Shown here: positions 8,475 through 63,648 of the stretch, one piece after another
Position numbering within the stretch: the first letter of the stretch is position 1
Layout: the number at the start of each line of letters is the position of its first letter
Origin: Candidatus Poribacteria bacterium
GTDB lineage: Bacteria > Poribacteria > WGA-4E > PCPOR2b
Direction of reading: 5' to 3'
Assembly (NCBI GenBank): GCA_965215015.1
Contig: OZ244042.1
Span: forward strand, 4,640,001 to 4,704,000
DNA: 64,000 nt
The notes under the pieces: model-generated
Database searches by the model: none
The model's input: only the letters and a program-made list of their open reading frames with translations
What the model was told of the DNA's origin: nothing
Program-made: the position numbers and the translations under genes

Positions 8475-10214
8475 TTGAATCAATTCATGCGATATGCAGG
8501 GCGAAATTTACAATACACAACTTATTTGCGACACGTAGCTTTTTACGCATTCATGGTATTCGGATTTGTGAGTTGTGCCGGAACAGTGGATCCGATTTTG
8601 CTCGAATCAAGCCTGAATGACACGCAGAATGCTATCTCCGACGCGCGGCGGTTAGGGGCGGAAGGATATGCTGCTGAAACATTCAACAAGGCGACACGGC
8701 TATTTGAAGAGGCACAACAAGCCCAGCGTAACGGTGATGGAGTTCAGAGCACAGAATTGGCGTTTCGGGCGGCAATGGAGTCTAAAATCGCAGGTGCACA
8801 GGCTCGTCAACGAATCGCTCAAAACCGAATTGACGAAGCGCACGCTGAAGGACTGAGGGCTGTGATTCAGGAGATGGAGTATAAGACCCAAACGGCACAA
8901 GTTCGGCGGTTAATTGCAGAAGAAAAGACGAAGCGAGCTTTGGCTAGAGCCCTCCGAGCGGAGCAGCGAGCGGCGGCTGCACAAGCGGAATCAGCACAGG
9001 CAAGAAAAGATGCCCAAAATGCTCGGCTCCGATCGCAGATACAAGTTGTTATCGATAAGGTACAACTCATACTGGAGGATGCCAAAGAGACAGGGGTGCT
9101 CACTTACGGCTCAGACAACTACCAAGCAGCGAAGGACCTGATTGTCCAAGCACGTTCTACCCTCGCACAGGACAAGTTTGATGAAGCGGAATCACTTGCC
9201 ACACAAGCCGAGAGCTATGCAAATAAAGCGAGGATTGCAGCCGTTGCTGGAGCGAGTGCCGCTGCTAGTAAATCACAGGCAGCAAAACTGGAAGCACACA
9301 CAAATGCAAAGGTGGCGATCGCCCGCGCACAGTTTGAGATTGATCGGGCAGAGCAGGTCAATGCGTTTGAGCATGCGGCGGGCCTCTTTCAACGCGCTGT
9401 CACCAGCTTTGAAGGGGCGAATATGGCTCTGACAAGAGAGCGGTATGATCAGGCATTGCGGCTCGCCGCACAGGCTGAAAGTAGTGCACATGATGCCTTC
9501 ACTACCGCTGAACCGATTGAACGGGAACGTTTGGCAAAGGAAGCCTTGGAGGAGCAAATCGCTCAAGCCAAAGACGTAGTTTTCCGGGTGGAAGAAACCT
9601 TGAACCGAGAAACACCGGCAGCGACAACGCTCAGCCCTCTACACTACGAACAGGCGAAAACGCTGCTCGCAGAGGCCAAACAGGCACTTGCGAATGGAGA
9701 CTACGCTCACACCATCACAGTTGGTCAGCAGAGCTATGACGACTTGATGGCCGCAATTGAAAAGGGAAAAGAGATTGAGGCAGTTGAGGCCCGGATTCTT
9801 GATGCCGCCGCAGCAATTCCTGACGCAGAAACGGATCGAACCGAGAAGGGTGCACTCATCCGATTCAGTGGAAACCTTTTCAAACAAGGAAGTTCGGAAA
9901 TCAATCCCCAATTCTTTCCCAAGATTCGTCAACTTGCTGAGGTTATTAAAACGTTTGTCGACTATAAAGTGCAAATCGAAGGGCATAGCGACAGCAGTGG
10001 GGGAACGGGGGTAAATCTGAGGTTGACGCAGAAGCGTGCTGATGCGTTCATGAAATACCTCACTGAAAAGTGCGGTGTACCGCTGGAACGGATGACCGCT
10101 ATCGGTTTAGGTGAAGCTCATCCTATTGCGGATAACAATTTTAAGGTGGGCAGAGATAAAAATCGGCGGATTGATACAATCCTTCTGACGAGGGAGCTAG
10201 AAATTTACGAATGA
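8475..10214 (+). CDS. Lipoprotein with several DUF4398-like helical repeats and C-terminal OmpA-like peptidoglycan-binding domain
   Basis: Lipobox FVSC; repeated Ala-rich helical units; C-terminal LFKQGSS, IEGHSDS, LTQKRA, GLGEAHPIADN and NRRID. The start may be ATG 8487. Confidence 0.85.
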   Translation: MNQFMRYAGRNLQYTTYLRHVAFYAFMVFGFVSCAGTVDPILLESSLNDTQNAISDARRLGAEGYAAETFNKATRLFEEAQQAQRNGDGVQSTELAFRAAMESKIAGAQARQRIAQNRIDEAHAEGLRAVIQEMEYKTQTAQVRRLIAEEKTKRALARALRAEQRAAAAQAESAQARKDAQNARLRSQIQVVIDKVQLILEDAKETGVLTYGSDNYQAAKDLIVQARSTLAQDKFDEAESLATQAESYANKARIAAVAGASAAASKSQAAKLEAHTNAKVAIARAQFEIDRAEQVNAFEHAAGLFQRAVTSFEGANMALTRERYDQALRLAAQAESSAHDAFTTAEPIERERLAKEALEEQIAQAKDVVFRVEETLNRETPAATTLSPLHYEQAKTLLAEAKQALANGDYAHTITVGQQSYDDLMAAIEKGKEIEAVEARILDAAAAIPDAETDRTEKGALIRFSGNLFKQGSSEINPQFFPKIRQLAEVIKTFVDYKVQIEGHSDSSGGTGVNLRLTQKRADAFMKYLTEKCGVPLERMTAIGLGEAHPIADNNFKVGRDKNRRIDTILLTRELEIYE

Positions 10215-10260
10215 GGGATATTTGCCAAATTTGTAGGTTTCCACGGAGGCTTGGAGACGC

Positions 10261-10560
10261 GTGCCAGATCGAGATACATTTCAAAAAATCGAACCGTTCA
10301 TCGTCCACCAAATTGCACAAAGTTTGTTTGGAGATCGGTATATCATTATTTACGATAATACGATTCAGTTTCACAGTCATTGCTATCATGTCAAGCGGAT
10401 TGAGGACACAACGCACCTATACACCGGATACTACTATCTCATGGACGCAAATACGCAATTGGCGATGCAGACTGATGAGGATTTCGCCGCGCCGGGAAGC
10501 TACGGGGCAATCTTCGATTCGGCCACAGGAGAAATTGTTGGTTATGATGGGGAGGGATAA
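10261..10560 (+). CDS. Hypothetical protein
   Basis: 99-aa ORF, GTG start preceded by GGAG, protein-like composition. Confidence 0.55.
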   Translation: MPDRDTFQKIEPFIVHQIAQSLFGDRYIIIYDNTIQFHSHCYHVKRIEDTTHLYTGYYYLMDANTQLAMQTDEDFAAPGSYGAIFDSATGEIVGYDGEG

Positions 10561-10606
10561 CACAGCAAGCTTGACTTCGTGAGTTTCGGCGAAGATCAAC
10601 TTTTAG

Positions 10607-10635
10607 CTGACAAATGCGGGCGCGTTTAATGTACT
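10607..10635 (+). promoter_or_regulatory. Weakened copy of the tRNA-operon sigma70 promoter
   Basis: CTGACA-17bp-TGTACT, homologous to 14441-14469. Confidence 0.6.
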
Positions 10636-10648
10636 TAAAGGTGCTCTC

Positions 10649-10683
10649 GCGGGAGTAGCTCAGCAGTGGAGCTCTACCTGGCC
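10649..10683 (+). pseudogene. tRNA-Gly 5'-half remnant (copy 1)
   Basis: GCGGGAGTAGCTCAGcagtgGAGCTCTACCTgGCC versus intact tRNA GCGGGAGTAGCTCAGTGGTAGAGCTCTACCTTGCC; similarity ends at the anticodon. Confidence 0.85.
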
Positions 10684-10746
10684 GTGGGAATTAACTATTG
10701 CCTCTTTTAACCCTTATGTATGGCTTACTAGCACGGAGGAATCAAG

Positions 10747-11523
10747 ATGAAGGCTAAACTTTTTCAAAGATTGGTGCTCCTTCTTTTTTGCGTATCCTTA
10801 CCCTGCTTGATGGGAGCGTATCGTATTACGCCTACAGAGGGATTGAGTATCTCCTCTATGGTTAAACTCTCCAATCTGGTGTTTACCGGAGAAGTTGTCG
10901 AGATGGAATTTGTCTTTCGAGAGGATCTACCACCTCAGTTTACGACAGATATCACCGTTGAGGTCGAAGCGATGATTAAAGGAACACCCAATGCCGGAGA
11001 AAACCGCGTGAAATTCATGATCCGTGGCGGAGAGGGTGTCCATCCCACAACAGGAGAGTCGCTGATATGTATTGCAACAGGTGCACCGCAGTTTGAAATA
11101 GGGGAGAAGGTGCTTATCTTCTTGCTAAGACACACGCGTTTGATAGAACACAGGCGTTTAAGGCAGCTGTCACCGCCCCCCTATGAGGGGCTGGCACCGG
11201 TGTGGTGGGGAAACAGAAAGATAGTGGATGAAAAAGTATCTGTGCCCTATACGTTCCAGAAAAGATTATTTGAGAATGGGCAGTGGAGAGATAAAACTCA
11301 AATGAGGGATATTCATCTCCCAATTGATTTGGCACGGCAGATTGCTCAAGCGGCATTGCAAAATGCCGAAGCCGTTTCAACGGTAGAAGAGCAGATTAGG
11401 ACCTTTGCTAAAAATGCCCCGGTGGTGCCAGGTGAGAACCCCATGCCGGGTCAGGTGCTTCTAGACAGTGTTGAGGCAGCAATCACACCCATTCTCCCTC
11501 AGGAACGAATGGAGGAACAATAG
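10747..11523 (+). CDS. Secreted hypothetical protein A1, probable TIMP/NTR-like OB-fold
   Basis: Signal peptide; pattern SNLVFTGEVV..TDITVEVEAMIKG..VKFMIRGG..GAPQFEIGEKVLIFL; GGAGG RBS. Confidence 0.7.
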   Translation: MKAKLFQRLVLLLFCVSLPCLMGAYRITPTEGLSISSMVKLSNLVFTGEVVEMEFVFREDLPPQFTTDITVEVEAMIKGTPNAGENRVKFMIRGGEGVHPTTGESLICIATGAPQFEIGEKVLIFLLRHTRLIEHRRLRQLSPPPYEGLAPVWWGNRKIVDEKVSVPYTFQKRLFENGQWRDKTQMRDIHLPIDLARQIAQAALQNAEAVSTVEEQIRTFAKNAPVVPGENPMPGQVLLDSVEAAITPILPQERMEEQ

Positions 11524-12354
11524 ATGTATCCGTTGCTGCGGCACAATGGTTCGGATGTTGAGTTTAATGACGAGACAGTGAAATTTCGTTTAATCAACGC
11601 TGGGGAAACACAACGCTCCCCAGGTCAAAAAGATGGTTGGAATGTTGTAGACTAGGGGATTATAGATCCATCACACCGGCTTGCAGAGGCCCATGTATGG
11701 TTCAGTCCCAATAATCCACTTCAAATCATTGAAGCCGACATAATATTTGACTACTATCAGCCATACGCGGCGCACAGTAATAATTTTCCCTCCGATAAGT
11801 ATTGTATTCGTAATGTTGCCACCCACGAATTTGGACATTGGGCGTTGTTATTAGATGTTTCTATAGGGGATTGCCCAAGCTATGCACCTTATACAATGTT
11901 TTCGCCGGGGGAACCTCAATTTAACATACACTCACAAGAGTCCCTTGAATGTGAAGACAAATATGGTCTTTGGTATACCTACAATGAAATGACCTTTTCT
12001 GCACCTCCTGTTCTGGCTAAACCTGAAGTTGTCAATCCTCCAACTACGACTAGCGTTGTAGAACAGACAAGGCTTTTTCAGAACTACCCAGACCCTTCTA
12101 ATCCGGAGACATGGATACCCTACGAGCTTTCAGAAGACGCTGATGTGACCGTTGAAATCTATGACTTAACAGGAGCTATGGTAAGGAAACTCGTCTTGGG
12201 GAGACAAACCAAAGGACGATATATCGACAAGAGGCGGGCCGCCTTTTGGGATGGAAGGAACGAAAGGGGCGAGTTAGTCTCATCAGGTGTTTATTTTTAC
12301 ACGCTTAAAGCAGATGAGTTTTCAGCAACACGCAGGCTAGCTCTTTTAAAATAG
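11524..12354 (+). pseudogene. Matrixin/metzincin protease B1 with FlgD-Ig/T9SS-like C-terminal domain; 5'-deleted, with in-frame TAG
   Basis: Frame from ATG 11524 has TAG at 11653-11655 (TGG in copy B2), then continues NVATHEFGHWALLLD..YTMF (zinc motif and Met-turn) and QNYPDPSNPETWIPY..WDGRNERGELVSSGVYFY. Confidence 0.8.
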
Positions 12355-12391
12355 GGTGCTCCTTAAAACCTTTGCTTAAAATAATCAATAA

Positions 12392-12555
12392 TAGGACTTA
12401 CGCAATTGAACGCTCAATGCGTTATAGTTCGGCACTTCATCGCCGGTGCCCATACCCTCTGAGGCCCAATGAATCGGGCAACTACAACAAAGGTTCCATT
12501 AAGGAGCTCGTAGTGAACAACTATCGGTGTTCCCTACTGAAGTGCGTAAATCCTA
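12392..12555. mobile_element. MITE-like element with TAGGACTTACGCA...TGCGTAAATCCTA termini and internal REP-like palindromes
   Basis: Imperfect 13-bp terminal inverted repeats; related copies at 14112, 24497, 59688 and 63487. Confidence 0.75.
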
Positions 12556-12719
12556 CAATAAATGGCAATTTCTTACGCCCCATTGAGCAACCCACTTGTC
12601 CTCGGCGGGGTTTTTCCATGTTAGTCGGTAGTTATATGCGTGTTCATCTTGAAAATTAATGACAATTCCCAAATCGGGCGAAGGATAAGGCGTGAATGAG
12701 CCATAAAATCGACTTTTAG

Positions 12720-12748
12720 TTGACAAATGCGGGCGTGTTTAATATACT
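12720..12748 (+). promoter_or_regulatory. Near-consensus sigma70 promoter (copy of the tRNA-operon promoter)
   Basis: TTGACA-17bp-TATACT. Confidence 0.75.
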
Positions 12749-12761
12749 TAAAGGTGCTCTC

Positions 12762-12796
12762 GCGGGAGTAGCTCAGTCGCGGAGCTCTACCTTGCC
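12762..12796 (+). pseudogene. tRNA-Gly 5'-half remnant (copy 2)
   Basis: GCGGGAGTAGCTCAGTcGcgGAGCTCTACCTTGCC, diverging right after the GCC anticodon. Confidence 0.85.
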
Positions 12797-12859
12797 CTGG
12801 GAATTAACTATTGCCTCTTTTAACCCTTATGTATAGCTTACTAACACGGAAGAATTAAG

Positions 12860-13609
12860 ATGCAGACTAAACTTTTTCAAAGATTGGTGCTTCTTCTTTT
12901 TTGCGTATCCTTACCCTGCTGGGCATATCCTACTCTACCTACAGAGGGATTAAGCATATCTTCTATGATTGATATGTCGGTTCTGGCGTTTACCGGAGCA
13001 GTTGTCGAGATGGAATTTGTCTTTCGAGAGAATCTACCACCTCAGTTTACGACAGATATTACCATTGAGATCGAAGCGATGATTAAAGGGACACCCAATG
13101 CCGGAGAAAACCGCGTGAAATTCATGATTCCCGGTGGAGAGGGTGTCTATCCCACAACAGGGGAGTCGCTGATATGTGTTGTACCGGATGCACCGAAGTT
13201 TGGAATAGGGGACAAGGTGTTTATCTTCCTGAGAAAACACAAGCGTTTAGCTAGACTTCCAGTCCCTCATGGAGGACTGATAACGGGATGGTGGGGAAAA
13301 AGAGAGATAGTGGATGAAAAAGTATCTGTGCCCTATACGTTCCAGAAAAGATTATTTGAGAATGGGCAGTGGAGAGATAAAACTCAAATGAGGGATATTC
13401 ATCTCCCAATTGATTTGGCACGGCAGATTGCTCAAGCGGCATTGCAAAATGCCGAAGCCGTTTCAACGGTAGAAGAGCAGATTAGGACCTTTGCTAAAAA
13501 TGCCCCGGTGGTGCCAGGTGAGAACCCCATGCCGGGTCAGGTGCTTCTAGACAGTGTTGAGGCAGCAATCACACCCATTCTCCCTCAGGAACGAATGGAG
13601 GAACAATAA
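12860..13609 (+). CDS. Secreted hypothetical protein A2, paralog of A1 (TIMP/NTR-like OB-fold)
   Basis: Signal peptide; N-terminal half diverged from A1, last ~100 aa identical. Confidence 0.7.
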   Translation: MQTKLFQRLVLLLFCVSLPCWAYPTLPTEGLSISSMIDMSVLAFTGAVVEMEFVFRENLPPQFTTDITIEIEAMIKGTPNAGENRVKFMIPGGEGVYPTTGESLICVVPDAPKFGIGDKVFIFLRKHKRLARLPVPHGGLITGWWGKREIVDEKVSVPYTFQKRLFENGQWRDKTQMRDIHLPIDLARQIAQAALQNAEAVSTVEEQIRTFAKNAPVVPGENPMPGQVLLDSVEAAITPILPQERMEEQ

Positions 13610-14074
13610 ATGTATAAAAAATCGCGGACTGGGCTTTCGTATCAGTCGTTTCCATTCTCGCCATATCCGGGAATGCCTTGGGAGAGATTCCATGTTCATT
13701 AGACTCGTGTGAGGATCTGTCTGAAGGAGGCCATCTAATATCCGGGAGGAGATGGAATCAACCCGGGACCCCTGAGAGAGTGAACTATTATGTCGGCGAG
13801 GAGTGGATTAACATGCCTGCCTTAGCTCCTGATGTATCCGTTGCTGCGGCACAATGGTCGGATGTTGAGTTTAATGACGAGACAGTGAAATTTCGTTTAA
13901 TCAACGCTGAGGAAACACAACGCTCCCCCGGTCAAAAAGATGGTTGGAATGTTGTAGACTGGGGGATTCCAGTTGATGACGAGTCTGTCGCAGAGGCCCA
14001 TGTATGGTTCCGTCCCAATAATCCACTTCAGGTCTGAGTTTTCAGCAACACGCAGGCTAGCTCTTTTAAAATAG
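13610..14074 (+). pseudogene. Matrixin-type protease B2: N-terminus retained, frameshift in A-run, catalytic domain deleted
   Basis: ATG 13610 is out of frame with the signal-like AFVSVVSILAISGNALG at the A6 run 13616-13621; at ~14031 it jumps to the last codons of B (GAGTTTTCAGCAACACGC), skipping ~590 bp present in B1. Confidence 0.75.
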
Positions 14075-14111
14075 GGTGCTCCTTAAAACCTTTGCTTAAA
14101 ATAATCAATAA

Positions 14112-14275
14112 TAGGACTTACGCAATTGAACGCTCAATGCCTTGTAGTTCGGCGATTCATCGCCGGCGCACACACCCTCTGATGACCGATGAATCGGGCA
14201 ACTACAACAAAGGTTCCATTAAGGAGCTCGTAGTGAACAACTATCGGTGCTCCCTACTAAAGTGCGTAAATCCTA
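14112..14275. mobile_element. MITE-like element copy
   Basis: TAGGACTTACGCA...TGCGTAAATCCTA with internal GTAGTTCGGCGATTCATCG / CGATGAATCGGGCAACTAC pair. Confidence 0.75.
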
Positions 14276-14440
14276 CAATAAATGGCAATTTCTTACGCCC
14301 CATTGAGTAACCCACTTGTCCTCGGCGAGGCTTTTCCATGTTAGTCGGTAGTTATATGCGCGTTCACCTTGAAAATTAACGACAATTCCCAAATCGGGTG
14401 AAGGATAAGGTGTGAATGAGCTACAAAATCAACTTTTTAG

Positions 14441-14469
14441 TTGACAAATGCCAGCGTGTTTGATACACT
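14441..14469 (+). promoter_or_regulatory. sigma70 promoter of the tRNA operon
   Basis: TTGACA-17bp-TACACT, 13 bp before tRNA-Gly. Confidence 0.75.
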
Positions 14470-14482
14470 TAAAGATGCTCTC

Positions 14483-14557
14483 GCGGGAGTAGCTCAGTGG
14501 TAGAGCTCTACCTTGCCAAGGTAGAGGTCGCGGGTTCAAGTCCCGTCTCCCGCTCCA
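14483..14557 (+). tRNA. tRNA-Gly(GCC)
   Basis: Acceptor GCGGGAG/CTCCCGC, anticodon arm CTACC-TTGCCAA-GGTAG, GGTTCAAGTCC T-arm, CCA end. Confidence 0.97.
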
Positions 14558-14561
14558 ATGT

Positions 14562-14633
14562 GGCGGCGTAGCCAAGTGGTAAGGCCGGAGTCTGCAAAAC
14601 TCCTATGCGTCGGTTCAATTCCGACCGCCGCCT
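14562..14633 (+). tRNA. tRNA-Cys(GCA)
   Basis: GGCGGCG/CGCCGCC acceptor, GGAGT-CTGCAAA-ACTCC anticodon arm, U discriminator; CCA not encoded. Confidence 0.95.
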
Positions 14634-14647
14634 TCATTCCTTAATAC

Positions 14648-14721
14648 GGGCGGTTAGCTCAGGTGGTTAGAGTGCTTGCTTGACATGCAAGAGGTCACTG
14701 GTTCAAATCCAGTATCGCCCA
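14648..14721 (+). tRNA. tRNA-Val(GAC)
   Basis: GGGCGGT/ATCGCCC acceptor, CTTGC-TTGACAT-GCAAG anticodon arm, GGTTCAAATCC T-arm. Confidence 0.95.
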
Positions 14722-14739
14722 TCTATGTTATTGAATACT

Positions 14740-14763
14740 AAAGAGCCGAAAGGCTCTTTTTTT
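14740..14763 (+). terminator. Rho-independent terminator of the tRNA operon
   Basis: AAAGAGCC-GAAA-GGCTCTTT followed by a T-run. Confidence 0.9.
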
Positions 14764-14858
14764 ATTGAAGGACGCTCGGAGAACAGGAGTTTACACAAAT
14801 TGAACAGGAATCGAAGCTAGGAAGAGCTTGCAAGAAATGCCAATAACTGGAGAGGATT

Positions 14859-16676
14859 ATGGAAAATTCAGAAAAGGATCTGCTTTATAAAATCAGGCAC
14901 AGCACCGCGCATGTGATGGCACAAGCGGTCGTGGAGCTTTATCCAGACGCTAAACTCGCTATTGGACCACCGATTGAAAACGGATTTTATTACGATTTTG
15001 ATCTCGGAAGCGATGGCGATGGCAAGCCGCTTGCATTTTCGCCGGAAGCCCTAGAGAAAATTGAGAAGCGGATGCGACAAATCGTCGCCGGCAAACATGC
15101 GTTTAATTATCGGGAAATCAGTCCTGATGAAGCACGCGAACTATTCAGAGATCAGCCCTATAAATTGGAGTTGATAGAGGGACTCATTGAGGGCAATGTC
15201 GATGAATATGGGGCTGCGATCGATGGAACACCGGTTGTGAGTACTTATCAGCAGGACACCTTTGAAGACCTCTGTCGAGGGCCTCACGTCGGAGACACAG
15301 GCGAGATACGCCCCGATGCCTTTAAGCTTTTGACTGTCGCCGGTGCATATTGGCGGGGCGATGAAAATAAAGCCATGCTTCAACGCATCTACGGCACGGC
15401 GTGGCACACCAAGGCAGAACTCAAGCAGCACCTTCAAATGCTTGAGGAGGCGAGAAAACGAGACCATCGCAAACTCGGCAGGGATTTAGAAATTTTTATC
15501 TTTGATGAGGACGTCGGGCCTGGGCTGCCCCTGTGGCTGCCAAACGGCGGCATCGTCATTGAGGAATTGGAAGCACTTGCCAAGGAGATGGAGGAGAAAA
15601 GAGGGTATGATCGGGTCAGAACACCTCACCTCGCCAAAGACGCACTCTTTCAGCGTACCGGTCACCTCGCGCATTATGCCGAAAGCATGTATCCACCGAT
15701 GGAGATGGAGGGCGTCCGTTACTACATGAAGCCGATGAACTGCCCATTCCATCACAAGATTTTTGATAGCAAACCGCGCAGCTATCGCGATCTGCCAGTT
15801 CGCTTGGGCGAATACGGCACATGCTATCGCTTTGAAAAGAGTGGTGAACTCTTCGGCCTCATGCGGGTGCGCTCCATGCAGATGAACGACGCACACATCT
15901 ACTGTTCGGAGGAGCAGTTTGAAGAGGAATTTATGGGGGTCGTTGACCTATACCTCGAATATTTCCGTATCTTTGGTATCGAAAAATATGTGATGCGTCT
16001 GAGTACACACCACAAAGCTGGACTTGGCAAAAAGTATATCGACAATGAACCGATGTGGCTCAAAACCGAAGAGATGGTCCGTAACGCGATGCGGAATGGT
16101 GATGTGCCTTTTGTCGAGGTACCTGATGAAGCCGCTTTCTACGGTCCCAAAATTGACGTGCAGATTTGGAGTGCCATCGGCAGGGAATTTAGCCTCGCCA
16201 CGAATCAGGTCGATTTTGCCGTACCGGCGCGATGTAATCTGAGCTTTGTCAATAGAGCAGGCGAGTCCGAAATCCCGATCTGCCTCCATCGAGCCCCACT
16301 CGGCACGCACGAGCGGATGATTGGCTTTCTGCTTGAGCATTATGCCGGCAAATTTCCCGTTTGGCTCTCACCGGAACATGCGCGCGTAATTCCAATCAAC
16401 GACAGCCACAACAACTACGTTCAGAAGATTGCTGAACGACTGAGAGAAGCCAAAATTCGTGCACAAGCAGATCTGGGGCCCGACCGTATGAATGCAAAAA
16501 TTCGTCAAGCCCAGTTGATGCAGGTGCCGTATATGCTTGTCGTTGGAGACAGAGAGGTTGAGGCTGGCACTGTTTCTCTCCGGAAGCGAGATGGAGCACG
16601 TCAAAATGGCTTGCCTGTGGAGGATTTTATAACCGCTGTCCAAGAGCGCATTGCAACACGATCGAACGAACTATAG
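14859..16676 (+). CDS. thrS: Threonine--tRNA ligase (no N-terminal TGS domain)
   Basis: RHSTAHVMA, DLCRGPH, RDHRKLG, KPMNCP, FYGPKID and HRAPLGTHER. Confidence 0.97.
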   Translation: MENSEKDLLYKIRHSTAHVMAQAVVELYPDAKLAIGPPIENGFYYDFDLGSDGDGKPLAFSPEALEKIEKRMRQIVAGKHAFNYREISPDEARELFRDQPYKLELIEGLIEGNVDEYGAAIDGTPVVSTYQQDTFEDLCRGPHVGDTGEIRPDAFKLLTVAGAYWRGDENKAMLQRIYGTAWHTKAELKQHLQMLEEARKRDHRKLGRDLEIFIFDEDVGPGLPLWLPNGGIVIEELEALAKEMEEKRGYDRVRTPHLAKDALFQRTGHLAHYAESMYPPMEMEGVRYYMKPMNCPFHHKIFDSKPRSYRDLPVRLGEYGTCYRFEKSGELFGLMRVRSMQMNDAHIYCSEEQFEEEFMGVVDLYLEYFRIFGIEKYVMRLSTHHKAGLGKKYIDNEPMWLKTEEMVRNAMRNGDVPFVEVPDEAAFYGPKIDVQIWSAIGREFSLATNQVDFAVPARCNLSFVNRAGESEIPICLHRAPLGTHERMIGFLLEHYAGKFPVWLSPEHARVIPINDSHNNYVQKIAERLREAKIRAQADLGPDRMNAKIRQAQLMQVPYMLVVGDREVEAGTVSLRKRDGARQNGLPVEDFITAVQERIATRSNEL

Positions 16677-59687: not shown

Positions 59688-59812
59688 TGAGAACTTACGT
59701 AGTTGAATGCTCCATGCCTTGTAGTTCGGTCATCGCCGGCGCACACAACCCCTGATGCCCGATGAATCGGGCAACTACAGCAGAGACTCCCTACAGAAGT
59801 GCGTAACTCCTA
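59688..59812. mobile_element. Short degenerate MITE-like copy
   Basis: GAACTTACGTAGTTGAATGCTC...GATGAATCGGGCAACTAC...TGCGTAACTCCTA. Confidence 0.7.
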
Positions 59813-63424: not shown

Positions 63425-63486
63425 AGAGACCTAATGATAGTTATCTGAACCGAGATTAGCAACTATAAAAGCAGCATCAATACTAA

Positions 63487-63648
63487 TAGGACTTACGCAG
63501 TTGAATGCTTAAAACCCTGTAGTTCGATGATTCATCGCTACAGAACACAATTTCCAATGCCCGGTGAATCGGGGGGCTACAGCGGGGGCACCAAAGGATT
63601 CCGTAGGGAACAACGATCGCCATTCCCTACGGAAATGAGTAATTCCTA
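63487..63648. mobile_element. MITE-like copy between the kinase and regulator genes
   Basis: TAGGACTTACGCAG...TGAGTAATTCCTA with internal REP-like pair. Confidence 0.72.

Follow-up and report, generated by a model that had tools for sequence, protein, structure and literature searches.

A tandem array framed by copies of a tRNA-Gly promoter and 5' half in a Candidatus Poribacteria genome, read as one insert duplicated in place

The stretch described here, the window, is 64,000 nt of the single-contig genome (5,943,281 bases) of a Candidatus Poribacteria bacterium; positions are in window numbering unless prefixed G000:C1, which marks that genome's own coordinates. It contains an array in which the promoter and 5' half of a tRNA-Gly(GCC) gene occur three times, in blocks that we refer to as heads 1 to 3, with heads 1 and 2 each leading into a small set of cargo genes (A and B) and head 3 into the remainder of the tRNA. 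From comparison of their sequences, the two cargo units are best read as copies of one insert and not as two separate captures. As to its origin, we put at about even the chance that the array is the fossil of one Campbell-type integration at the 5' part of the tRNA gene, with the recombinase supplied in trans, followed by tandem duplication through unequal crossing-over.

The repeated block and the units behind it

The repeat finder recovers the block as three copies of 83 nt, in register and in the same orientation (10601-10683, 12714-12796 and 14435-14517), with copies 1 and 3 being 92% and 90% identical to copy 2 over that length; the spacings of 2113 and 1721 nt between the copies are the lengths of the two units. 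With BLAST the block extends to 92-93 nt (10592-10683, 12705-12796 and 14425-14517), beginning some 15 nt before the -35 hexamer and ending at base 35 of tRNA-Gly(GCC), just past the anticodon, and these are the only three sites in the whole 5.94-Mb genome (E values of 1e-76, 1e-57 and 7e-28, far beyond chance). An initial annotation, made from the letters alone, had described a block present three times of which only the last is an intact tRNA-Gly, and the repeat finder, BLAST, ARAGORN and Rfam all agree: copy 3 alone runs into an intact tRNA-Gly(gcc), which scores 73.4 bits in Rfam and is followed by tRNA-Cys (65.3 bits) and tRNA-Val (67.3 bits). Sequence comparison likewise bears out that copies 1 and 2 break off at the anticodon, the match ending directly after anticodon base 36 and giving way to a shared 63-nt leader and then gene A. 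The interrupted gene is single-copy, with Gly gcc, ccc and tcc found once each among the 49 tRNA calls of the genome. After heads 1 and 2 the order in each unit is the 63-nt leader, gene A, the remains of gene B, a repeat resembling a miniature inverted-repeat transposable element (MITE), and a unit-specific spacer of about 140 nt. The polarity that had been singled out as unusual stands: what is duplicated is the promoter with the 5' half, and the rebuilt tRNA has the cargo on its upstream side.

The heads differ in quality. The consensus first given for the promoter, TTGACA-17-TAyACT, describes heads 2 and 3, and fails for head 1, which reads CTGACA-17-TGTACT and is missing from the promoter-scan list. 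The two best sites in that scan are head 2 (TTGACA/TATACT, 11/12) and head 3 (TTGACA/TACACT with TG, 10/12); the scan yields 8 sites overall against 7.1 in shuffles, so only the quality of the hexamers is informative. The 5' half was also said to end in CCTTGCC in all copies, which has to be corrected for copy 1, whose end reads CTACCTGGCC (CCTGGCC). The D-loop letters are TGGTA in the real tRNA, CAGTG in copy 1 and TCGCG in copy 2. RNAs made of head and leader fold no better than shuffles (z of +1.18 and +0.87), and Rfam at E<=1 finds no family besides tRNA, save a chance match to Plastid-ycf2 (E 0.57). The cargo genes and the copied tRNA promoter share one orientation, and no strong promoter is seen within the cargo itself, so that for unit 2 at least the outcome can fairly be called promoter capture; in unit 1 the hexamers of the head are degenerate.

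Empty sites in relatives and probable duplication of the insert

All 15 same-genus genomes searched (congeners) have one promoter and one Gly-Cys-Val cluster, at 94-97% identity and with no extra head, and among these genomes and our own, partial head copies are found in our own only. In 13 of the 15 the flanks are contiguous, with window positions 9092-10683 joined directly to 14429/14432-16233. The two exceptions have other material at this place: in G005 a 394-aa open reading frame (ORF), which by eye we take to be transposase-like, fills 1.4 kb between the 99-aa ORF of the left flank and the tRNA-Gly promoter (238-1422 of locus L044), and G003 has a different gene upstream of the promoter (locus L050). 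DNA resembling the cargo is absent in 18 of 19 congeners, the remaining one, G014, having gene A only (80% DNA identity) at another location and with no adjoining gene B; a search of 28 other genomes of the family gave gene A in G014, an A-B pair in G020, and otherwise many matches to the common C-terminal sorting domain. Because all 15 congeners have a single head and 13 of them directly joined flanks, the window holds a lineage-specific insertion of 3834 nt composed of two tandem units. Variation among relatives in unit number or cargo, which the initial annotation had proposed to look for, is not seen: each of the 15 congeners has a single head and no unit at all.

Since the organism is uncultured and its assembly consists of a single contig, and since the units are 85-97% alike, two strain alleles of one unit might have been strung in tandem through the 92-nt repeat. 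We regard such an artefact as extremely improbable. At least part of the stretch is contained in 20 sequencing runs, and contigs of four of these, from four studies (X1, X5, X7 and X8), were compared. Those of X1, X5 and X7, from three studies independent of the assembly, contain both the unit-1-specific segment 10992-11248 and the unit-2-specific segment 13099-13334, each with 0 differences; the joint of head 1 and leader 1 is bridged by contigs of X7 (10355-10700) and X8 (10548-10698), and that of spacer 2 with head 3 and the tRNAs by contigs of X1 (14278-15200) and X7 (14260-14509). With both units and the junctions recovered in contigs from three other studies, the array is not an assembly artefact; moreover, the deletions in gene B differ between the units, and a mix-up of alleles would not set them in tandem in every sample.

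The units are collinear in all repeat families (D1-D8), and they agree in gene order and in the presence and position of the MITE. At 85% protein identity, A1 and A2 are closer to each other than to any other A, the nearest of which is the homologue in G014 at 69%. Their first 150 codons differ with a nonsynonymous divergence (dN) of 0.155 and a synonymous divergence (dS) of 0.279, and the codons from 151 onwards are identical, within an identical run of 304 nt (11219-11522 = 13305-13608). For comparison, dS between this genome and the 15 congeners is 0.42-1.54 in the 605-aa ORF to the right of the tRNA cluster (14859..16676), which we take by eye to be the threonyl-tRNA synthetase gene thrS; because the A1/A2 value of 0.28 is lower, insertion, duplication and conversion would all fall on this genome's own branch. 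The units have the features of a tandem segmental duplication: they lie head-to-tail, have the same content, are closest to each other, and share a conversion tract.

The heads carry a second record. In an alignment with 18 relatives, the left flank of head 1 is native, and heads 2 and 3 share the unit spacer on their left. Inside, head 3 is genus-like (TTTGATACACT, AAAGATG and D-loop TGGTA), and heads 1 and 2 have four derived changes in common relative to the genus consensus (TTTAAT,.TACT, AAAGGTG and a G as last D-loop base), besides private ones. Such a pattern is the footprint expected of a single crossover between a block-carrying circle and the chromosomal gene. It would be explained equally well by a crossover at the left end, head 1 then consisting of element-type sequence, and by one at the anticodon end, head 1 then being the decayed old host copy; the anticodon loop, pointed to at the outset, is thus not required as the crossover point. 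Unequal crossing-over of head with head would then explain the layout of three heads and two cargoes.

These comparisons bear on the idea, put forward in the initial annotation, that cassettes accrete here one by one. In its full form, the locus would be an active, integron-like platform at tRNA-Gly where promoterless cassettes, acquired separately and each headed by the tRNA promoter and 5' half, pile up and a recombinase in trans may excise or reshuffle them, a reading that we consider quite unlikely. Heads 2 and 3 are indeed strong promoter matches, the cargo is co-oriented with them and lacks a strong promoter, and divergence between A1 and A2 is considerable in their N-terminal halves. 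Separate capture is at odds, however, with the shared gene order, MITE insertion and derived head mutations of the units, and with an A1/A2 dS below that of thrS. A platform in use is at odds with the lack of any unit or extra head in the 15 congeners, with the near absence of cargo-like DNA among them, and with the decayed promoter of head 1. No attC-like inverted repeats are found at the cargo ends, the 3' side of a unit having MITE ends only. Two public collections were scanned with a 36-letter IUPAC pattern for a broken tRNA-Gly head, exact outside the D-loop, and gave 0 matches in genome_contigs and 0 in metagenome_contigs (our own genome was possibly excluded from them). The further claim that the repeats permit excision and changes of copy number holds in part: the repeats do recombine, as seen in the 304-nt conversion tract and in a hybrid gene B in X5 (see below), but a joint by which a unit is gained or lost is absent from the contigs of the four runs, from which rare forms are dropped and which do not address rare excision. 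The only joints in these contigs are a MITE-related skip (12486>14139, side 23), a 61-nt skip in the tRNA cluster, and the X5 joint in gene B, which goes back 2307. The locus now looks fixed and immobile.

Table 1. Features of the array and its flanks, in window positions.
Feature	Position	Strand	Evidence
OmpA-family gene, native left neighbour	8475..10214	+	Pfam OmpA 4.7e-18 and DUF4398; collinear with 13/15 congeners
99-aa ORF, native left flank; abuts tRNA-Gly promoter in relatives	10261..10560	+	ORF list; window 9092-10683 aligns as a single piece in 13/15 congeners
Head 1, decayed: CTGACA 10607-10612, TGTACT 10630-10635, tRNA-Gly bases 1-35 at 10649-10683; native left flank	10592..10683	+	Absent from promoter-scan list and tRNA calls
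Leader 1, 63 nt, ribosome-binding site	10684..10746	+	Shared with 12797-12859
Gene A1, secreted 258-aa protein, predicted NTR/TIMP-like fold	10747..11523	+	ORF; model; Foldseek; VIA
Gene B1 remnant, matrixin-like metallopeptidase (HEFGH) with FlgD_ig/T9SS-type C-terminal domain	11524..12354	+	Translation; Pfam FlgD_ig 1.5e-8; unit comparison
MITE-like repeat in unit 1; inverted ends 12392-12407 / 12540-12555	12389..12564	.	45 own-genome matches; inverted-repeat pair
Unit-specific spacer 5' of head 2; weak terminator-like hairpin 12595-12609	12565..12704	+	Only two full copies in genome; terminator scan
Head 2: TTGACA (12720) -17- TATACT (to 12748), tRNA-Gly bases 1-35 at 12762-12796	12705..12796	+	Best promoter match of the region, 11/12
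Leader 2	12797..12859	+	Repeat of leader 1
Gene A2, 249 aa, 85% identical to A1; last 304 nt as in A1	12860..13609	+	ORF; unit comparison
Gene B2 remnant: N-terminal part kept; frame break in A6 run 13616-13621; about 590 nt gone	13610..14037	+	ORF; unit comparison
MITE-like repeat, unit 2 copy	14109..14284	.	94% over 362 nt; coordinates derived via the 1720-nt offset of repeat D2
Head 3: TTGACA 14441, TG-TACACT to 14469, first 35 bases of intact tRNA-Gly; left flank unit-type, inside genus-type	14425..14517	+	Alignment; promoter scan
Intact tRNA-Gly(GCC), the genome's only gene for this anticodon	14483..14557	+	ARAGORN, Rfam
tRNA-Cys(GCA) 14562-14633 and tRNA-Val(GAC) 14648-14721, same operon; terminator-like hairpin 14740-14759	14562..14721	+	ARAGORN, Rfam, terminator scan
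605-aa ORF, native right neighbour	14859..16676	+	ORF list; collinear with all 15 congener loci

The MITE-like repeat listed in Table 1 is about 175 nt long with 16-nt inverted ends, and further copies lie elsewhere in the window at about 59690-59785 and 63484-63648.

Origin of the insert and comparable loci in the genome

The sequence of events that we favour, at about even confidence, has three steps. A small circular DNA carrying a promoterless A-B operon and a copy of about 93 nt of the target (its limits being some 15 nt before the -35 hexamer and anticodon base 36) would have undergone a single, Campbell-type crossover with the chromosomal tRNA-Gly(GCC) gene. The old promoter and 5' half would be left upstream as a dead fragment reading into the cargo, and the tRNA would be reconstituted by joining the incoming promoter and 5' half to the 3' half already in place, which mirrors the usual arrangement of islands at the 3' end of tRNA genes (tDNA). 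The insert would in this way have kept the tRNA working by supplying a new promoter and front half. The enzyme is taken to be a site-specific recombinase supplied in trans, and the insert would for that reason resemble an islet without integrase of the kind called a CIME (cis-mobilizable element). The second step, which is well supported, would be the unequal crossing-over between two heads that gives head-cargo-head-cargo-head plus tail. The third is seen in the units themselves: they go on trading sequence by gene conversion, gene A is intact in both, and gene B decays by different deletions. Because the sequence does not identify the enzyme, routes by RecA and illegitimate joining or by template switching have to be weighed beside this one, and other loci of the same genome bear on them.

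When 48 tRNA genes with 120-nt flanks were compared with the genome, fragment copies were found for Gly and Leu only, both of them 5' parts. The scan omitted a tRNA-Asn call at 2313614 in a repeat array; this ARAGORN call (tRNA-Asn(gtt), G000:C1:2313614-2314022) lies inside an array of repeats offset by about 39 nt, with many partial copies genome-wide, and is probably a tRNA-mimicking repeat. At the tRNA-Leu(CAG) locus (G000:C1:5711438-5713247) an 84-nt repeat is present at 5711438-5711521 and 5713126-5713206, 1.69 kb apart, with the intact gene at 5713162. The block runs from the -10 hexamer to about base 44 of the tRNA, and the insert of 1.6 kb contains two co-oriented ORFs for tetratricopeptide-repeat (TPR) proteins. 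The flanks are contiguous and the block is single in 19/19 congeners. The upstream copy has the real promoter (TTGACA-18-TAGACT) and is degenerate inside, and the copy at the intact tRNA is genus-like; as the promoter scan lists no promoter-like site directly upstream of the intact tRNA-Leu, this gene may depend on read-through. The 3' part of the cargo has paralogues of 74-83% elsewhere in the genome, and 7 of the 28 further genomes searched in the family contain cargo-like DNA; among the 19 congeners just 1 does. In the leader of tRNA-Leu(CAG), about 20 nt 5' of the tRNA, there is also a CCGGCG that can pair with the gene's own acceptor strand, CGCCGG (G000:C1:5713126-5713170, and congener loci L084-L101); it is kept in most aligned congeners and destroyed in the dead upstream copy.

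A scan for direct repeats of 50-160 nt gave 328 raw local pairs, of which 53 have a copy number <=3; 27 of these are >=84% identical and 13 are without flank homology, leaving 11 pairs besides Gly and Leu, five of which were compared with congeners. Since the filter excluded repeats longer than 160 nt, the similar lengths of the blocks carry no weight. Pair 223 belongs to a hydantoinase-B gene (Pfam E 1e-147; G000:C1:4711408-4716154, about 7.4 kb past the window end), of whose 5' coding part a 76-nt copy lies 4.67 kb upstream; the copy extends to about 88-90 nt when the flanking bases are read. The interval contains a co-oriented gene for a 1057-aa arylsulfotransferase-like protein with a tail of the type IX secretion system (T9SS) type, plus MITEs. 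In G003 about 410 nt separate the flanks, and with gaps of 0.4 to about 19 kb in the various congeners, the region upstream of hydantoinase-B is a variable hot spot. At all three loci (Gly, Leu and hydantoinase-B) the cargo is co-oriented with the promoter of the target.

The other pairs compared with congeners are as follows. A Fic-family gene lies between 76-nt AT-rich direct repeats (pair 111, G000:C1:2659652-2661064); the same cargo occurs in G014 and G003, the flanks of G001 enclose a single block without cargo, and those of G007 are separated by 44 nt. At G000:C1:4595655-4597424 (pairs 219 and 220) a 1.77-kb insert is absent in G002, G003 and G008 and has no simple flanking duplication; it begins with a MITE, followed by 76-nt and 65-nt copies of sequences 3 kb to the right and 2 kb to the left. 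Pair 33 was rejected as an insert, as it consists of MITE-like blocks around genes that are conserved in the congeners shown.

Several observations weigh against integration by a recombinase in trans. The three inserts contain neither an integrase gene nor a remnant of one, and in the Gly units genes A and B, the MITE and the 140-nt spacer account for the entire length. The initial annotation's statement that the window lacks a recombinase gene holds within the scope of the scans made: recombinase or transposase families are found neither among 53 window ORFs of >=110 aa (Pfam, E<=1e-5) nor among 8 ORFs around the array (E<=0.1), and there is no match to PF00589 in six frames of the window, the genome's 11 tyrosine-recombinase matches all lying elsewhere, at distances above 200 kb from both the Gly and the Leu locus. 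The genome has no further copy of the Gly or Leu head that would mark a helper element, and an element of this kind was not found in the 15-19 congeners or in the two collection scans. The junctions at the three targets share no motif by eye, so that several specificities or a loose one would be needed, and the cargo consists of ordinary Poribacterial genes for secreted proteins and not of mobile-element genes. Finally, a site-specific crossover and a RecA crossover within 84-93 nt of homology are indistinguishable from the sequence. Transposon-like ends were considered and rejected, the cargo having no terminal inverted repeats.

It is accordingly possible, though we put its probability well short of even, that no site-specific enzyme took part. 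A foreign Poribacterial fragment, linear or circularised, in which the cargo natively lies upstream of the tRNA would have entered by RecA recombination within the conserved promoter and tRNA sequence and one illegitimate joint, as in homology-facilitated illegitimate recombination, or, if self-ligated, by Campbell insertion, with duplication by unequal crossing-over following. Blocks of 84-93 nt are of sufficient length for RecA recombination, and the absence of integrases and remnants from three inserts, the lack of a common junction motif and the host-type cargo all point this way. So do the left limit of the Gly block, which lies at about the end of promoter conservation even in comparison with other families of the order, and the range of 0.4 to about 19 kb upstream of hydantoinase-B, by which donors with different upstream content are known to exist. 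The donor required for the Gly locus has no counterpart, however: genes A and B adjoin tRNA-Gly in no genome searched, the A homologues of G014, G004, G002 and G007 are far from tRNA-Gly, and the loci of G014, G020 and the G000 paralogue have no tRNAs. The Leu block begins inside the -10 hexamer, although 19/19 congeners share the -35 hexamer and about 20 nt upstream of it, so that a congener donor would have given a longer block. That three of three events lie on the 5' side calls for an added assumption, namely selection for expression of a promoterless cargo.

In replication or repair template switching, a fork or break in a tRNA gene under heavy transcription would lead to copying of an ectopic 2-kb template, with re-entry about 90 nt back, yielding an insert and a target duplication. 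Mobile elements would have no part in this route, which we consider unlikely. The genome does have another one-off copy-paste, of 608 nt at 88% (2186078-2186675 against the rpoB end, 2196427-2197033), and the missing recombinase genes and terminal inverted repeats are in keeping with such copying. The genome holds no source copy of the Gly cargo, however, its only A paralogue being 34% identical, so the template would have been foreign or since lost; nor does copying of this kind predict that three events should all rebuild the 5' ends of genes.

A broader proposal, rather unlikely in our view, treats the Gly, Leu and hydantoinase-B inserts as products of one undescribed route in Poribacteria and perhaps other uncultured phyla. 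Promoterless cassettes would enter the first 35-90 nt of a transcription unit and duplicate 84-93 nt of the target, the captured promoter driving the cassette and the target being rebuilt behind it, with no recombinase carried.

Cargo genes and comparison with known systems

Gene A has no Pfam family, and its own family is present in 22 of 41 genomes searched. A model built from 15 homologues (pLDDT 88.8) matches agrin NtA in Foldseek (E 5.8e-4), followed by TIMP-1, TIMP-2 and PCOLCE NTR. In VIA, 111-121 residues align to NtA, N-TIMP-3 and TIMP-1 with Z of 8.0-8.4 (NtA 3i70, Z 8.4, rmsd 3.3, 119/128 residues; N-TIMP-3 3cki_B, Z 8.3, rmsd 3.0, 115/121), and proteins with an NTR module make up most of the top 40 rows. 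A language-model atlas, taken as a lead only, places TIMP/NtA among the nearest Pfam-bearing clusters (0.83-0.88). The predicted fold of the gene A product is thus the NTR/TIMP fold, with an NTR module of the OB type. The inhibitory ridge of TIMPs is formed by the mature N-terminal Cys1 and a conserved disulfide framework; because no cysteine is conserved among the invariant and near-invariant columns of the 15-sequence alignment, the gene A product is not a strict TIMP.

Matrixins and other metzincins are marked by an HExxHxxGxxH/D zinc motif and a Met-turn. In the gene B family HEFGH and a D six residues on are invariant in 8/8 members, with the glycine of the motif absent, and a YTM stretch is present in seven, the eighth (L030) ending before it. 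Weak matches to Peptidase_M10 are found in five of the eight at E<=10 (best 8.8e-6) and none for the first member; in the atlas the nearest clusters are 'Matrixin domain-containing' (0.89), and the structure model is poor (pLDDT 49.9). The C-terminal domain is FlgD_ig/T9SS-like in Pfam, and a PDB sequence search gives only FlgD (E 0.06-0.1).

Both copies of gene A are intact and both copies of gene B are broken. In B1, 222 nt of the N-terminal part, bounded by two ATGTAT repeats, are gone, and an in-frame TAG stands at 11653-11655. B2 has lost about 590 nt with HEFGH and the C-terminal domain, and by eye its frame is broken in an A6 run (13616-13621), which leaves a signal-peptide-like start out of frame with the remainder. 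As the short-read contigs of X1 and X5 have no reported indel at this place, the break is not a long-read error; the run could be a pseudogene break or a slippage site. A contig of X5 runs from 13305-13857 into 11551-11723 with 11654 A>G (TAG to TGG), which joins an N-terminal part of unit-2 type to a middle of unit-1 type; another strain therefore has a more complete gene B, and the TGG in place of TAG indicates that decay of the unit 1 gene is recent and at strain level.

A B-like gene adjoins an A homologue at 7 of 20 distinct A loci (these include L020, L024, L028, L030, L032 and L082), and the A product might inhibit B or a host peptidase. In Listeria monocytogenes a metzincin with a TIMP-like lipoprotein partner is described (PMC8235301). 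Compared by description, the likeness is in the adjoining genes for a secreted metzincin-type peptidase and a TIMP-fold protein, whereas the Poribacterial A lacks a conserved N-terminal cysteine, and B has a T9SS-type C-terminal domain and is broken here. The interest of the cargo is that a TIMP-fold protein is kept in two copies beside a decaying matrixin-like peptidase, in a symbiont that lives in an animal extracellular matrix.

The systems that the array most resembles are compared below. Islander lists 3760 islands with a 3' tDNA fragment and 159 with a 5' fragment (159/3919), and 125 tandem arrays (PMC4383910), and integration of the 5'-distal type in tRNA genes is called 'considerably less frequent' (PMC6563490, citing Zhao & Williams 2002). 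Like the 5'-fragment islands, the array has an intact tRNA at one end and a displaced fragment in the same orientation at the other, the insert bringing the 5' part; the break in the anticodon loop for tRNA-Gly, the empty site in relatives and the tandem arrangement also correspond. It differs in that Islander requires an integrase inside the island, and here there is neither an integrase nor a remnant of one, in having about 2 kb per unit with host-type genes for secreted proteins, and in a block that includes the whole promoter.

CIMEs are elements without integration genes in which attL and attR are retained (PMC5704250), and with these and the tandem accretion of streptococcal elements the array has in common flanking direct repeats that resemble attL and attR, their att function being putative, the lack of recombinase, integration and transfer genes, and a tandem arrangement at a tRNA-type site. 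The published CIMEs are decayed integrative and conjugative (ICE) or integrative and mobilizable (IME) elements at 3' ends, with a cognate ICE, whereas here we find no remnant genes, no cognate element (no other head copy in the genome and none in the congeners) and no mobility, and the tandem would be a duplication and not the accretion of a second element. Tycheposons of Prochlorococcus form arrays separated by partial tRNAs, with degenerate remnants (bioRxiv 10.1101/2020.12.28.424599); the likeness is in side-by-side units divided only by partial tRNA copies and in remnants beside the tRNA gene, and the difference is that tycheposons carry tyrosine recombinases and replication modules and vary by strain, while this array has neither of these and looks the same in four runs. 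Islands that integrate into the 5' end of dusA have a dedicated integrase family (PMC4482086); the hydantoinase-B locus likewise involves the 5' end of a gene, and has no integrase. With integron cassettes the array shares a promoterless, co-oriented cargo expressed from a promoter supplied by the site, but there is no intI (no tyrosine recombinase lies in the window), attI or attC, the units are duplicates of each other, and the repeat is a piece of the target gene.

Because neither the integrase that defines Islander islands nor the remnant genes or cognate element that tie a CIME to its origin are present, the array is a variant of these systems and not a member of either. The architecture is rare and already catalogued, and follow-up value lies in its recurrence at three loci without a recombinase gene, together with the TIMP-fold cargo; the recurrence raises the question of whether island finders that demand an integrase systematically miss small cassettes. 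Set beside the catalogued islands, the locus is a clean and comparatively dated case of the rare 5'-polarity tRNA insertion from a little-studied phylum of sponge symbionts, in which an insert appears to have placed foreign genes for secreted proteins under a stable-RNA promoter and then to have been amplified by unequal crossing-over.

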